Shown here in pieces: positions 12,257-16,921 of a stretch of DNA of 53,706 bases. The position numbers and the translations under genes were made by a program. The DNA lies in IMG/VR virus record IMGVR_UViG_3300012971_000006, positions 1 to 53,706 of that record. One strand, written 5' to 3'. The notes beneath the pieces are model-generated. The model did no database searches and was not told the DNA's origin. It worked only from the letters and a program-made list of their open reading frames with translations. Position 1 is the first letter of the stretch. Every line of letters starts with the position of its first letter. The DNA comes from a virus (Duplodnaviria; Caudoviricetes).

Positions 12257-12631
12257 CTATGTAGATACTGCGGCCCTCAGACACTGGCATTTCTTAGCGC
12301 CGCTCGACCCGTTGCGCTCGACGATCAGCCAGCCGCTGCCGCCGCAGATCGGGCACCCGGTGTTTCTCGGAGCGCCGAGGTATTCGCCGGTCGAGGGCTT
12401 GGGCTTGAAATGGTCGCAGATGTCGCCGGGCTTCGGGCACTCGCGGTTTCTGAGCGTAAGAGTCCAGTGCTCGACAAACGCCTCGCCCGCCGCGACGCTG
12501 GGTGCATTCTGCATAGCTTTGATCAGCAGCGCGACGGCTTCATCGTCGGGCGGATAGTAATTCAGGCCCGACAGCCGCCGCACCAGCAGGAAAGCGTCAT
12601 CGGCCCCGATCCTCGATTCTTTTGAGCGCAT
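12257..12631 (-). CDS. Replication-associated protein with C-terminal zinc finger
   Basis: Follows the initiator; CPKPGDI and CPICGGSGW...AKKCQC motifs. Confidence 0.7.
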   Translation of the reverse strand: MRSKESRIGADDAFLLVRRLSGLNYYPPDDEAVALLIKAMQNAPSVAAGEAFVEHWTLTLRNRECPKPGDICDHFKPKPSTGEYLGAPRNTGCPICGGSGWLIVERNGSSGAKKCQCLRAAVST

Positions 12632-13724
12632 TCATCACCCCCTCATATCGCCGCTCGGCTTTCGACATCGGCTTTCTCGCGACCGGCGGCATGCGCCATT
12701 CCTGATCCCTCACCCAACGCCAGAGCTGCGGTATAAACTTCCCGGCGGGCAGCTGCCGCCAGTACTCGCACCATGCCGCATGGTTGGCCCGCATCTGGTC
12801 TGCCGCGCCGGGATGACCGGCGAGGGCCTGCTCTATCTCGCCGACCGCGCGCATCGGCAGGCCGGGCTGCGGGTGCGCCGCTGAAAGCTCATAGGCCAGC
12901 TGCTCGGCCTCGGTCGCCTCGGGCTGGCTCACCGGGCGAGCCCGCTCTGTAAATTCCTCCCGCATCTTTAGCCCGCATCCCGCATTGACGGGCCGCATAG
13001 CGGGCGTGCCGAGGGCGGATGCCCGGGGGGTCGGGCCCGTTTGGTGCTGCCCCATGCGGTTGGTACGTCCCGACCCGGCGGGCTTCAGCCCTTCGTTACA
13101 CTGAATCGGGCCGTCTAGCTCGACGGAGCGAAAATCGGGGGAGCCTGCCCCGACCGACGGCCCGCTGTTCACCCGTTCGCTGTGTTCAATTTTATTACTC
13201 GCATCGCTCGCCGCCGCCGACGACGACTGGGCCCGCTGGCCCGCCCTATGTAGATCAGTGGAGTCGGCGGCGTCGGAGCGTATAGGTTCAAAATTAAATG
13301 TCTCTTGTTCAATAAGGATGCGGGCGTTTAGACTGGGCCATTCTGCGGTCGCAGATGTGCGGTCGCACAATGGCTCTGCGACCGCCGCGCCGGTCGCCGG
13401 GTGAGCGTTTGCCGGTCGCCGCAGCTGCCGGAAAGACGGGTGATGCCACTGGTCGGGCGTGGTTATTTCGTAGCTGCTCGACCGGCGGCATTTACTCGCG
13501 ATGACGATGCCACAATCCCGCAGCTTGGCCATGAGCCGCTGGGCCTTGCTGTAAGACCAGCCGTGGTACTTGGCCAGCGTGATCAGCTTCGGGTTGAGCT
13601 GTTTTGTTTTCGCGTTACAGTGCCAAAACAGATCAGCTAATAGTGCGATTGCATCGCCTTGCAGCAAACGTACTACGGGATGATCGGGAATTGTGCGATA
13701 GTATGAAGTCGTCGGCGTCGTCAT
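12597..13724 (-). CDS. Putative replication initiator (N-terminal HTH)
   Basis: NPKLITLAKYHGWSYSKAQRLMAKLRDCGIV...SSSYEI wHTH, low-complexity linker, C-terminal KFIPQLWRWVRDQEW motif typical of phage replisome organisers. Confidence 0.75.
   Translation of the reverse strand: MTTPTTSYYRTIPDHPVVRLLQGDAIALLADLFWHCNAKTKQLNPKLITLAKYHGWSYSKAQRLMAKLRDCGIVIASKCRRSSSYEITTPDQWHHPSFRQLRRPANAHPATGAAVAEPLCDRTSATAEWPSLNARILIEQETFNFEPIRSDAADSTDLHRAGQRAQSSSAAASDASNKIEHSERVNSGPSVGAGSPDFRSVELDGPIQCNEGLKPAGSGRTNRMGQHQTGPTPRASALGTPAMRPVNAGCGLKMREEFTERARPVSQPEATEAEQLAYELSAAHPQPGLPMRAVGEIEQALAGHPGAADQMRANHAAWCEYWRQLPAGKFIPQLWRWVRDQEWRMPPVARKPMSKAERRYEGVMNALKRIEDRGR
13281..13421. other. Candidate replication origin inside the initiator gene
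   Basis: TGCGGTCGCA at 13344-13353 and 13358-13367, inverted TGCGACCGC 13377-13385, GCCGGTCGCCG x2, next to AT-rich 13281-13320. Confidence 0.55.
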
Positions 13725-13855: not shown

Positions 13856-14212
13856 TTAAGGCGACCGCTCAAACCGTTCAAGCCACTCGCGCAGCTCGGC
13901 GGGTGTTTCGACGACGACGACCTCGAAGCCGCAGCCCATTCGCAGCTCGGCATGCCGCCGCAGTTGAATCTCTGAAGGCTCTTCGCCCGGCGCTTTCGTT
14001 TCGAGAAAAAACGAGGGCCGCGCGACCGCGAGCCAGTCTGGGTCGCCGGGTGTGCCCATAGTCACCCAGTTCCCGTTAGGAGTTCTGAACCGTCCCACGT
14101 GCTGCCGCACTGGGAAATAGCCGCAGCGCCGCAGCTCGGCGAGGCACGCGCGCTCGACGTCGTTTTCACTAATGTGCGGTCGCTCGGGCCGCAGCTTAAA
14201 GCGCTGGCTCAC
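13856..14212 (-). CDS. VRR-NUC-type nuclease (Holliday junction resolvase-like)
   Basis: SENDVE...GTPGDPDW...FLETKAPGEEPSEIQ; GTG start coupled to upstream TGA. Confidence 0.85.
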   Translation of the reverse strand: MSQRFKLRPERPHISENDVERACLAELRRCGYFPVRQHVGRFRTPNGNWVTMGTPGDPDWLAVARPSFFLETKAPGEEPSEIQLRRHAELRMGCGFEVVVVETPAELREWLERFERSP

Positions 14213-14424
14213 GCGACGGCCCCATTGGCCCTTTCCGGGCACGGCTCGCACACCATGTCGACGCCCGCGCGCATCATGGTGCCCGCGAAGTGCATCCACT
14301 CGGCGCGCGCGCCGGTCACGACGCCCATGGCGACCCATGCTTCGCCCGGGCGCGCTATTTCGATGCGCCCGTGGTAATGGCCCGGGTCGGTCGCGTTGGG
14401 GTGCCAGCATACGCGCAGCTTCAT
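14209..14424 (-). CDS. Hypothetical protein
   Basis: MKLRVCWHPNATD...; ATGA-coupled start. Confidence 0.65.
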   Translation of the reverse strand: MKLRVCWHPNATDPGHYHGRIEIARPGEAWVAMGVVTGARAEWMHFAGTMMRAGVDMVCEPCPERANGAVA

Positions 14425-14882
14425 GCCGTCGCCCGCTGCTCTGCCTCGGCGACCGCATCTTGAGCCGCCCGGCGCACGGCGATTCTGCACCCGGCGCAGA
14501 GGTCGCGCTGCTTGTCCAGTTGATCCCACATCAGCGTGCCGCGCCGGTGCGAGCCAATCTGAATGCGGCACCAGCTCACGTGCGTGTCAAACATCACGAT
14601 GTGCCAGTCGTGGCCGACTTTGGCCGTCTTGAGCGCGGCGCGGCCCTGAAAGACCAGCGGCAGACATTGCAGCTGCCGGGCGAGTACGGCCTCATCGTTG
14701 CGTTTCCAGAGACACGCCTCGCACTCGGTCATCACGACGTTGCCCGCTATCGGCTTCTGGCAGGTTTTGCAAGTCAATCCGGTTTTCCCCCTAAACGAAA
14801 AAAAGCCCGGGGATTGCTCCCCGGGCCTCCATGGCTTCCAGTCCTTACACAGCGGGTCACTGCACGACCCCAGAAATTTCAA
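14421..14882 (-). CDS. Cys-rich hypothetical protein (start uncertain)
   Basis: Several CxxC motifs; overlaps integrase 3' end. Confidence 0.65.
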   Translation of the reverse strand: MKFLGSCSDPLCKDWKPWRPGEQSPGFFSFRGKTGLTCKTCQKPIAGNVVMTECEACLWKRNDEAVLARQLQCLPLVFQGRAALKTAKVGHDWHIVMFDTHVSWCRIQIGSHRRGTLMWDQLDKQRDLCAGCRIAVRRAAQDAVAEAEQRATA

Positions 14883-16530
14883 TAGGTTGGGCGAAGGTAA
14901 TGGTCAGATCGGGCGTGGCGCAAAAGTCTAACTGCGATTTTAGTGGCAGCGCCGCTTTTGCGCCAGCGCTGAGCTTAGCCAGATAACCGCCGTTGAGCTT
15001 CACAGACACGATAGTGGACCCGCTTAGCGTAATCTCTTTGACCCCGCCGCGCAATGCCTCGCGCTGCTCTTTGAAGCCCAGAAACGCGAACTGCCCGAAA
15101 GCCGTGACCAACGCCTCGGCGACCTGCTCGGGCTGAATGCCCTTTACCTGCTGCGGCAGCGTAGCGAGCACGGCCTTGGTCTTGTTTTCGAGCGCGGCCA
15201 TGGCGACCTTGAATTCGGCGTGCGACAGGTCGCCCGACCCCATGGCCGCAATGAGCGACTGCCGACCGCTGGCCAGCTTGGCGGCGGCTTTCTCGCGCGC
15301 GCCCCGGTTCGGGTCGGCCTTGCGGGTCGAGGCCAGAACCACATTGCAGACCTCGACGATAAAAGCCGCGTTGAGCAGCTGCGAGGTCACCATCTCGATG
15401 ATGGCTGCGTCGAGGCCGGTGCGGCGGATAGAGGGCATGCCGCAGCCGATGCCGCCCTTGTGGCGCGTCTTGCAGCGGTACATATCGTTCTCATTAGTGC
15501 GCGAGCCGTAGACGCCGTACAGCAGCTCGCCGCATGAGCACCGCACCATGCTGTTACCGATGAAGCGCGGGCGACCGGCGTTTTTGTCTTTGCCGCGCCG
15601 CCATGCCGCCCGGCGGGTCGCGAGGATCTCTTGCACGCGGTAAAAAACGGCCTCGCTCACGATTGGCGCGAGGTCGATGTCGACGAGCAGCGGCTGCTCG
15701 CGCTTGGCGGTTTTTTTGCGGATCTTGGGCTCGGGATTTTTCGCGCTCGGCTCGGGCAGGTACTCTTCGCCGACCGTCCACCGATAGATGCGCTTGCCGA
15801 TCCAGATCGGGTTTTGCAGGGAGTCGTGCAGGCCCTTGCCGGTGATGCCGCCGATTTTCTCTGCGGCCAGCTCGCAGCTGTCGCCGTGCAGGATGTGCTC
15901 GAATGCTTGCGCAATGTTCTGGGCAAAGTCGGTGTGCGCCCAGTGAGCGCTGGTCGTCTTGCCGGTTTGCGGGTCGCGCTGCCGCGTGTAAACGACGCCC
16001 TTCGGCAGCATGTGATTGCCGCCCGCATGCTTGCCAGCGAGCCGCTTGACCTGCTTGCCATCGTTCATGCGCTGGCGGATGAGCCGCAGCTCTTCGCCCG
16101 ACATGTAGCCGCCGAAGAGCAGCAACATTTTGCCCTCGCTGGTGTTCGGGTCGATGCGTTTGTCGGGCGTGTAGATCAGTTTTTTGTTGGCGGCGAAGTG
16201 CTCGAAAACCGCATAGTCGCCGTATGCCTCGGGCCGGATGACGCGCGATTGCTCGGCGGCGAGCAGGCCCTTGAGCGTCGGGTCGCCGGACGCCATTTCA
16301 GAGAAAATTTTCTTAAATTGCGGGTCGTGCATCACGTGCCGACCGGAGACGTCGACAACCGTGATCGTGCGGCGAATCCGCACCCGGTGCCGCTCGGCGG
16401 CGGCGACGTTGGCCAAGTGCTGCCGCTCGACGCCGCCCTTGTCGCCAGCCGCTTGCTCGGCGGTCGACACACGGATCAGCTCAAGTACATCACCTTCGTA
16501 TCCATTGGGTAACGCTAATGAAGAGTTCAT
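14857..16530 (-). CDS. int: Large serine recombinase (integrase), ~557 aa
   Basis: IRVSTAEQ catalytic motif, DVSG, recombinase domain (LQNPIWIG...APIVSEAVFYRVQEIL), zinc ribbon (RCSCG...YRC...GC) and coiled coil; start 16530 chosen from promoter position. Confidence 0.95.
   Translation of the reverse strand: MNSSLALPNGYEGDVLELIRVSTAEQAAGDKGGVERQHLANVAAAERHRVRIRRTITVVDVSGRHVMHDPQFKKIFSEMASGDPTLKGLLAAEQSRVIRPEAYGDYAVFEHFAANKKLIYTPDKRIDPNTSEGKMLLLFGGYMSGEELRLIRQRMNDGKQVKRLAGKHAGGNHMLPKGVVYTRQRDPQTGKTTSAHWAHTDFAQNIAQAFEHILHGDSCELAAEKIGGITGKGLHDSLQNPIWIGKRIYRWTVGEEYLPEPSAKNPEPKIRKKTAKREQPLLVDIDLAPIVSEAVFYRVQEILATRRAAWRRGKDKNAGRPRFIGNSMVRCSCGELLYGVYGSRTNENDMYRCKTRHKGGIGCGMPSIRRTGLDAAIIEMVTSQLLNAAFIVEVCNVVLASTRKADPNRGAREKAAAKLASGRQSLIAAMGSGDLSHAEFKVAMAALENKTKAVLATLPQQVKGIQPEQVAEALVTAFGQFAFLGFKEQREALRGGVKEITLSGSTIVSVKLNGGYLAKLSAGAKAALPLKSQLDFCATPDLTITFAQPIEISGVVQ
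14916..14965. other. Candidate attP (50-bp imperfect inverted repeat, central TT/AA)
   Basis: TGGCGCAAAAG-tctaa-CTGC-gattTTagtg-GCAG-cgccg-CTTTTGCGCCA; size and symmetry match serine integrase attP sites. Confidence 0.7.
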
Positions 16531-16535
16531 GTCCA

Positions 16536-16557
16536 TAAGTATATCATGTCCTACGTA
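16536..16557 (-). promoter_or_regulatory. TAGGAC-box promoter, copy 2 (integrase promoter)
   Basis: TACGTAGGACATGATATACTTA; ATG 16530 is 8 nt after the -10. Confidence 0.7.
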
Positions 16558-16733
16558 GTTAACGGCGGTCGCCCGGCGGCGCGGTTTTTGCGCCGGTTCC
16601 GCCGGTTTCGGGCGTTGGTCGTCTGGTACTTGCACGCGCGGCATTCGCGCGCGCCGTCGGCCTTGTGGATGGCGTTAAAGCCGCTCAGCTCGTGCAGCCC
16701 GCGTTTGCAGCGGGCCAGCTTGCGCATGCCCAT
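16551..16733 (-). CDS. Small basic zinc-finger protein (CKRGLH...RECRAC)
   Basis: Motif like the Cys/His module attached to phage HNH proteins; TAATG-coupled start. Confidence 0.7.
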   Translation of the reverse strand: MGMRKLARCKRGLHELSGFNAIHKADGARECRACKYQTTNARNRRNRRKNRAAGRPPLTT

Positions 16734-16921
16734 TAGTGCGCGGTTTCCTCGGCGGGCAGACCGCAGACCTCGCGGGCGAGCCGCAGCGCGGCCAGCGTGT
16801 CGCCGATTTCGAGGGCCTTGCGCATGCGTCCAATCAGCTCCATGCGGGCGCGACCGATAGCGACCCATTTGAGTGCTTGCGCTTCGGTGAGCTGATCCTC
16901 GGGCCCGGGCTCTTCCTTCAC
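16733..16921 (-). CDS. Small helical hypothetical protein
   Basis: ORF track. Confidence 0.65.
   Translation of the reverse strand: MKEEPGPEDQLTEAQALKWVAIGRARMELIGRMRKALEIGDTLAALRLAREVCGLPAEETAH

Follow-up and report, generated by a model that had tools for sequence, protein, structure and literature searches.

Why should a phage integrase gene hold, within its own coding sequence, a symmetric DNA site of the kind that such enzymes recombine? The question is raised by IMGVR_UViG_3300012971_000006 (Duplodnaviria; Caudoviricetes), an IMG/VR record of 53,706 bp that was analysed over its whole length and is called the window here. The record is complete and has direct terminal repeats, and thus the window represents the free phage form. 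On its minus strand, at 14857..16644, there is a gene whose product is identified from its sequence and structural model as a large serine integrase (LSI). Near the 3' end of the gene lies a 50-bp imperfect palindrome (14916..14965). It is likely, judging from related loci, that this palindrome is attP, the attachment site of the phage, and that integration swaps the C-terminal tail of the integrase. An attP inside the integrase gene had been proposed in an initial annotation of the window. The proposal is supported by covarying palindromes at the same position in relatives, by prophage junctions in a sister clade, and by swapped tails in the window's own clade. From these relatives we infer that this particular phage integrates at 14940/14941.

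The integrase and the palindrome in its gene

The longest open reading frame at 14857..16644 encodes 595 aa. The stored gene-caller form, P0002, has 559 aa, and its start would be M37, at about position 16536. Three Pfam domains were found. Resolvase (PF00239, residues 57-205, E 9e-10, 39.3 bits against a cut-off of 23.3) is the N-terminal resolvase-type catalytic domain. Recombinase (PF07508, 271-344) is marginal, at 21.9 bits against a cut-off of 21.1, and the zinc ribbon Zn_ribbon_recom (PF13408, 366-419) scores 37.8 bits. Residues S60 and R58 are almost invariant across the integrase alignment A1. An AlphaFold model built on 33 sequences has a mean predicted local distance difference test score (pLDDT) of 83. 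In the model, long helices (408-494) follow the zinc ribbon, as an inserted coiled coil would. The best Foldseek matches of the model are solved serine integrase-att complexes, namely 9y66 and 9dxh (SPbeta-type), 9rah (PhiC31), 9iu2 (Bxb1), and 4kis (LI), with E values for the full-length complexes of 4.6e-18 to 6e-14.

The palindrome reads TGGCGCAAAAG (14916-14926), tctaa (14927-14931), CTGC (14932-14935), gattttagtg (14936-14945), GCAG (14946-14949), cgccg (14950-14954), and CTTTTGCGCCA (14955-14965). Its outer arms are 11 nt long, 100% complementary, and 28 nt apart. The inner arms are the 4-bp segments at 14932-14935 and 14946-14949. Each half has 17 of 26 positions symmetric, which fits an LSI attP of about 50 bp. 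The window arms contain the motif GCGCC, of the type bound by a zinc-ribbon domain, at half-site positions 20-24. The proposed crossover dinucleotide (14940..14941) is non-palindromic, TT on the plus strand and AA on the coding strand, and corresponds to the invariant A30/A31 of an alignment of seven such sites. The centre T|T falls between L568 and K569, 27 codons ahead of the integrase stop and downstream of the last Pfam domain. The initial annotation had given this layout, from the 11-bp and 4-bp arms to the central TT at 14940/14941, and the sequence reads as stated there. Its placement of the site 27 codons before the stop and past the last recognisable domain is confirmed by the open reading frame and the Pfam results.

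Palindromes at the same position in homologues

Six homologous loci on phage or metagenome contigs were examined, L003 (=L006), L004, L005 (=L008), L007, L009, and L010. They encode proteins with 39-48% identity to the window integrase. In 6/6 of them the best local palindrome is found at the same codon position, with 16-20 of 26 positions symmetric, while the 60-mers of these homologues share just 28-33 of 60 bases with the window. Aligned with no gap, the set of seven 60-mers has two invariant central bases, A|A on the coding strand. Over the 24 symmetric position pairs, 76.2% of the cells are pairing, as compared with 63.6% after shuffling, and in 14 of the 24 pairs both sides have changed. 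Covariation scores 0.415, whereas shuffled alignments score 0.148, and none of 500 shuffles reaches that height. When one arm is slid by 1-3 columns, the score drops to 0.05-0.12.

The encoded amino acids covary with the arms as well. G-A occurs with S/C-A, G-V with D-S, and C-V with D-T. As far as can be read from these sequences, it is the peptide that the homologues alter and the DNA symmetry that they preserve.

Other searches for relatives gave less. The int region had no match in the phage collection. A search with P0001 found nothing in viral contigs, and one with alignment A2 found no relatives in genome contigs. Alignments A1 and A4 proved too diverse to build patterns from. The sole P0001 match in genome contigs is the closest GTDB relative of the window integrase (L002 10091-10853, on G001:C19; 40% identity). 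This gene is degraded, being frameshifted and cut at about residue 301. An opposite-strand open reading frame beside the remnant contains HPFNDGNGR, which we take to be a Fic-type motif. A further match, L052 in genome G006, has a different C-terminus and is uninformative.

Prophage junctions in a sister clade

Profile searches were made of three samples of 401 Acidobacteriota genomes each, taken from the order, the phylum, and the class of the sole GTDB genome with a remnant relative. The samples overlap and hold about 1,200 distinct genomes. They contain a sister clade of integrases whose identity to that of the window is 28%, along the entire length as far as the residues that immediately precede the site. 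In 10 Acidobacteriota genomes (G250, G193, G340, G366, G707, G465, G984, G810, G847, and G922), the 3' end of int runs across a junction into the antisense strand of a split comM gene (Mg-chelatase-type). Both prophage junctions were read in G193, G340, and G366. The phage arm at attR is an inverted copy of the one at attL (16/18 in G340), and in G193 a matching variant is present on both phage arms. The dinucleotide CC is invariant at the centre of all sister-clade attL and attR sequences. In the reverse complement of the far junction, the int frame continues into a conserved tail, ...EVKLVLPEPY(L/F)RTPP..., which resembles the PDLTIRFPxP strand of the window clade. Thus, in the sister clade attP lies in the 3' end of the integrase gene and integration removes a conserved tail.

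These results bear on two points of the initial annotation. It had suggested a search for related prophages with a boundary at this position, and the sister-clade junctions do fall inside the equivalent palindrome, in a split comM. It had also named homologues that keep the peptide and lose the DNA symmetry as evidence against the site, and the six homologous loci turned out the other way, with the symmetry kept and the peptide altered.

Further observations were made on comM and its integrases. In G193, comM is split by about 298 kb (L033/L024, L026, L017, and L038; G193:C1, about 3,526,000-3,824,500). This insert looks like a tandem array of elements, with three integrase genes of the sister clade on one strand at spacings of about 98 kb and 49 kb. 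The internal junctions (L026 and L017) and the far junction of G250 have, in place of the phage palindrome arm, a left arm that is degenerate and comM-like (CATGAATGCCCCT...). A third type of integrase (L088 in G819, L092 in G906, and L094 in G911) stops a few codons short of comM sequence that runs on in the sense direction (...TFPARFMLAAAMNPCPCG...), and its junction is about 20 codons upstream of the sister-clade site. It appears that comM is a target of at least two clades of serine integrases, which differ in site and orientation and which each have the junction at the 3' end of the integrase gene.

The detached native tail of the sister clade is about 95 aa long and conserved, ...LGIKPELFRYR..YPEF.RDGKGRLFS.EDL... 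(L038:1225-1522(-), L041:1223-1516(-), and L037). One of two such tails tested gave a weak HTH_17 match that stays under the cut-off of 27, with 16 bits and E 0.014. An excisionase-like helix-turn-helix that is fused to the free-form integrase and lost on integration would be interesting if true; it is not established.

Swapped tails in the window's own clade

Among 1.84 billion representative proteins, 339 matches below 1e-30 were found by a profile search, and 166 stored proteins were scored with the clade profile. A full tail is present in 43 of the 166. Homology is lost at profile positions 526-545, the palindrome, in another 38, and the remaining 85, 16 of which have comM-antisense endings, end earlier. 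The 38 proteins run on past the palindrome into short tails that recur in register, for example TSPCWLRCPAPG*, TSLCSHRCQGPKR*, and ISRCSRRCRGRV... The differences among them are concentrated at second codon positions, which is the pattern that reading a host gene on its opposite strand is expected to give.

The swapped tails decode as the antisense of LGIGANTA(M/I)F, the N-terminal motif of ADOP permeases. In the decoding test, nine antisense codons were compared with L-G-[IVL]-G-A-[NS]-[TS]-A-[MIVL], with a free choice of synonymous codons and with anchors set by hand. The proteins P0007, P0010, P0017, P0034, P0045, P0063, P0066, and P0077 decode at 9/9 codons and three further proteins at 8/9. 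P0007 is 46% identical to the window integrase. Random tails reach 9/9 with P = 0.0015, and full-tail proteins reach 2-6/9. An anchor-free scan of the last 60 residues gave 9/9 in 0 of the 43 full-tail proteins, in 7 of the 38 that lose homology at the palindrome (one of them off-site), and in 2 of the 85 others.

A frameshift of the normal tail was considered as a source of the swapped tails and rejected. Out-of-frame translations of seven real tail DNAs resemble them vaguely, and the in-register ADOP decoding fits much better. All of the 10 tail-swapped proteins that were looked up are JGI metagenome singletons, and P0041 and P0077, whose contigs measure 59.7 kb and 81 kb, were absent from IMG/VR.

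The proposed host site

The host side of the crossover can be approached from the swapped tails. A DNA pattern back-translated from them matched 25 GTDB contigs. About 21 of these share one conserved sequence and are nearly all from Acidobacteriota. Read on the strand opposite to the tails, this host sequence encodes ...LALGIGANTAMF|SVV..., and the conserved site encodes LALGIGANTAMFS. One of the genes, L061:2022-4742(-), is an ADOP family permease by TIGR03434, which it matches at 899.2 bits (cut-off 622.3), and it also contains MacB_PCD and FtsX domains. ADOP genes are numerous in these bacteria, with at least 56 copies above the cut-off per genome in four genomes.

The proposed bacterial site, attB, also has the motif of the phage arms in a shifted position. 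In the ADOP consensus, GCGCC is at half-site positions 15-19, in the G-A-N codons, as compared with 20-24 in the window arm, a shift of 5 bp. Written as GGCGC, the motif of the host site is likewise at half-site positions 15-19. According to Rutherford 2013 (PMC3783163), the motif of the zinc-ribbon domain (ZD) occupies half-site positions 16-24 of attP and is shifted 5 bp towards the centre in attB. The ADOP site fits this rule, its role as attB being itself a reading of the sequence. Past the centre, the host site has its first 7-8 bases in common with the phage right arms. At least 120 contigs contain the left inner arm and centre of the window (ACTGCGATTTT) combined with the shifted motif, mostly in Acidobacteriota ADOP genes that encode ALGIGANTAIFS.

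Taken over the clade, the swapped tails and the host pattern point to ADOP genes as the target of integration, in antisense orientation to int and with strand exchange at the TT of the Phe codon. For this phage in particular, attB is probably an ADOP permease gene. It would most likely lie in the 5' region of the gene, at the codons ...GIGANTA(I/M)|FS... (LGIGANTAIFSVV), antisense to int. The split ADOP gene would be cut after roughly 110 codons. Its N-terminal fragment would end 12 codons into phage DNA, on the plus strand, the ADOP frame being assumed to hold. The cost to the host is probably small, since there are dozens of ADOP paralogues per genome.

The linker and the detached tail

The part of the integrase that would be detached consists of 27 codons, K569-Q595 (14860..14940, minus strand), and is marked by a conserved tail motif and a modelled strand. 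The motif, PDLTIRFPxPxxI, is conserved in the full-tail class, and the window has the conserved strand LTITFAQPIE at 580-589. The palindrome itself encodes G561-A576, and the model has a pLDDT below 50 at 561-575. The only other internal stretch below 50 is 350-353. Before the linker the model has strands at 535-541 and 544-550 and a helix at 552-559, and past it is the terminal strand, in a block with a pLDDT of 87. Because the low-pLDDT stretch lies between structured parts, the DNA site appears to occupy a predicted disordered linker that is able to tolerate constraint on its sequence.

The C-terminal ends of the full-tail proteins are not random. Among the 43, 26 end in [AVIL]A (19 of these in AA) and nine in [VIL]Q, while Ala makes up 9.5% overall. 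These end classes, -AA/-VA/-IA and -VQ/-IQ/-LQ, are independent of tail length among the full-tail proteins within P0003-P0165. The window's own end, ...ISGVVQ, belongs to the second class and is not like an ssrA degron. The earlier remark that it is not an obvious ssrA-type tag holds for the window; most relatives nonetheless end in -AA or -VA.

The prophage form must still excise, and thus the tail would not be essential for catalysis. It could affect stability, the efficiency of integration, or directionality.

Alternative explanations

Several observations weigh against an attP in the integrase gene that recombines with an ADOP gene. The ADOP junction of the window's own clade is deduced from protein tails and a host DNA pattern. 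In the three 401-genome samples no ADOP-type junction was found, and the relatives there are solely of the comM type. The junction pattern, TCA followed by the ADOP antisense, had seven matches in all GTDB representative genomes. These are native permease variants, and none is a junction. The lone sequencing run that holds the phage region (X1, possibly the source sample) has no joint or loose end at 14940, as seen in its Logan contigs only; these contigs break at the terminator hairpin described below. For the host site, the identity to the left inner arm was imposed by the search pattern, so that the matches show that suitable sites exist and are common and not that they are used. The other half of attB, the ADOP codons FSVVNAVLL, lacks a clear outer motif and shares little sequence with the right arm of the window. 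Finally, the integrase of L020 (G231:C1:5535631-5540139) keeps a tail-like end (...SVVLQPEPAKVVAA) within a 5.5-Mb contig. This element uses a different site, if it is integrated, and not every relative need share the attP-in-int arrangement. An apparent palindrome with 8-bp arms (GGTTGGAG ... CTCCAACC) was seen by eye ahead of the L020 tail.

The palindrome could also have arisen by chance, or be an operator for another protein, with no part in integration. Within the window it is not exceptional by itself. Inverted repeats with perfect arms of at least 11 bp and a loop of at most 40 number two in the window, as compared with a mean of 1.59 and a maximum of 5 in 100 dinucleotide shuffles. Six centres reach 17 or more symmetric positions out of 26, and the mean over 20 shuffles is 3.15. 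The significance of the palindrome comes solely from its conservation in homologues, and it is there that chance fails, with compensatory changes at the same position in 6/6 loci. An operator, in turn, leaves unexplained why relatives switch to host-gene antisense at the centre. Both origins are very improbable. A hairpin in the integrase mRNA is a stronger candidate, though still an improbable one. It would serve in processing or stability, like the sib retroregulation of lambda, and would not be a recombination site. The 90-nt RNA would fold well, at -32.3 kcal/mol (z = -3.11 against 200 shuffles), and covariation of the arms is equally expected of an RNA helix. However, just 3 of about 128 paired cells in the homologue alignment are G.U, and the mismatches include A.G and C.A (judged by eye from the listing), which are disfavoured in a helix. 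The invariant unpaired AA at the centre and the spacing of the arms in two blocks suit a dimeric DNA-binding protein. It is exactly at the centre that the sister-clade junctions and the tail swaps of the window's own clade occur, and a separate terminator already follows the stop. The symmetry is better read as that of DNA, though the RNA would fold.

If the palindrome is attP, its position could still be neutral. The linker would then merely tolerate the constraint, the swap of the tail would have no regulatory role, and the prophage form would work equally well. This is possible, if somewhat doubtful. It agrees with the predicted disorder of the encoded peptide, with host-encoded replacement tails that are short and varied, and with an excision step that would make the tail inessential for catalysis. 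Set against it are the strand motif of the detached part, D-L-x-I/L-x-F/L-P-x-P, which is conserved throughout the clade and has a similar strand in the sister clade, and the non-random C-terminal ends, which argue for selection on the tail of the free phage.

Comparison with known systems

Canonical LSI attP sites normally lie beside the integrase gene. The Mx8 Int and the integrase of mycobacteriophage BPs are of the tyrosine type. In SSV1-type fuselloviruses, the gene for an archaeal tyrosine recombinase is partitioned in two by integration at an internal attP. To our knowledge, integration that changes the C-terminus of a protein is known only in such tyrosine-type systems (Mx8, BPs, and SSV1).

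The window resembles the LI/A118, Bxb1, and PhiC31 systems in the domain set and fold of its integrase and in an imperfectly symmetric attP of about 50 bp with a non-palindromic dinucleotide. As in published LSI attP sites, two blocks (inner at about 3-9 and outer at about 14-25) flank this dinucleotide. It differs from these systems in having the proposed attP inside the gene and not beside it.

The closest system in layout is IntP/IntX of the Myxococcus phage Mx8, where attP is in the integrase coding sequence, as it would be here. The initial annotation had given SSV1 and the BPs repressor as precedents, which are apt, and had omitted Mx8, which is closer. The account of Mx8 in a review (PMC6070905, citing Tojo 1996 and Magrini 1999) describes attP within int and a recombinant gene with a new 3' end after integration, the enzyme being modified and not inactivated. 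The window enzyme, in contrast, is an LSI with a 50-bp symmetric site of the LSI kind, and is alike in layout without being a member of the Mx8 family. The arrangement here also appears common to whole clades, with two different host targets.

Like BPs, the window would have an in-gene attP and a prophage protein with a different C-terminus; this was read from DNA in the sister clade and is implied by the tails in the window's own clade. In BPs it is the repressor gene that is cut, whereas here it would be the integrase gene itself. The viral form in BPs has a C-terminal ssrA-like degradation tag, and the BPs integrase has a C-terminal proteolysis signal, according to the relevant part of PMC4557955. 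The 26 of 43 full-tail relatives that end in [AVIL]A are similar to this, while the VVQ of the window is not ssrA-like. In SSV1 the gene is split into two parts, whereas here a short tail would be lost.

No published serine integrase with attP in its own gene was found in the literature searched, including passages of Durrant 2022; this is no proof of absence. That paper does report that competence genes are enriched among the targets of large serine recombinases (LSRs), which is consistent with comM as a target.

Neighbouring features

An intrinsic-terminator-like hairpin is present just past the integrase stop, at 14798..14826 on the minus strand, with arms at 14805-14813 and 14818-14826 (inverted repeat I5). 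It is followed by a T-run on the minus strand and is distinct from the palindrome. The integrase gene is flanked by open reading frames on the same strand, 16551-16868 and 13856-14458. These have weak PHROG matches to an HNH-endonuclease (E 2e-5) and an endonuclease (E 6e-10), respectively. Perfect 11-bp arms occur in just one further inverted repeat of the window, at 13345-13385 (GCGGTCGCAGA and TCTGCGACCGC, 19 nt apart). It lies in an open reading frame on the minus strand (12597-13724, 375 aa) that has no PHROG match.

Proposed mechanism and implications

In the mechanism proposed for the attP within int, integrase dimers would bind both arms of the palindrome and exchange strands with attB at the central TT. 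After integration, the body of the integrase gene would be at one edge of the prophage and would read outwards into the host sequence. A short peptide encoded by the host would take the place of its last 27 codons, and the native tail would be left at the other edge, about 53 kb away. Excision would restore the full integrase gene.

Whether the swap of the tail also has a regulatory function is a more tentative matter, and such a function is only a possibility at present. The same low confidence applies to the idea that the integrase rewrites itself as a switch of state. In such a switch, the full-length form would be short-lived or biased towards integration, and the prophage form would differ in stability or directionality and must still excise. 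The terminal strand and the conserved end (-AA/-VA or -VQ) would limit the lifetime of the enzyme or favour integration. The DNA specificity of the enzyme would dictate part of its own sequence, because the site must bind its own zinc-ribbon domain. An example would be the peptide 'GANS', which mirrors 'GANT' of the host permease. A large group of serine integrases from Acidobacteriota, those with comM or ADOP genes as targets, would have inherited this arrangement from their ancestor.

The locus offers a concrete, testable attP/attB pair for an uncultivated soil phage, with the host phylum, Acidobacteriota, predicted from the attachment site alone. It would be a clear case of DNA-binding specificity that constrains the sequence of the protein that holds it. 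The directionality of serine integrases is normally attributed to coiled-coil interactions and to a separate directionality factor. This control would gain a genome-encoded memory of state if the enzyme had one C-terminus in the free phage and another in the integrated one.

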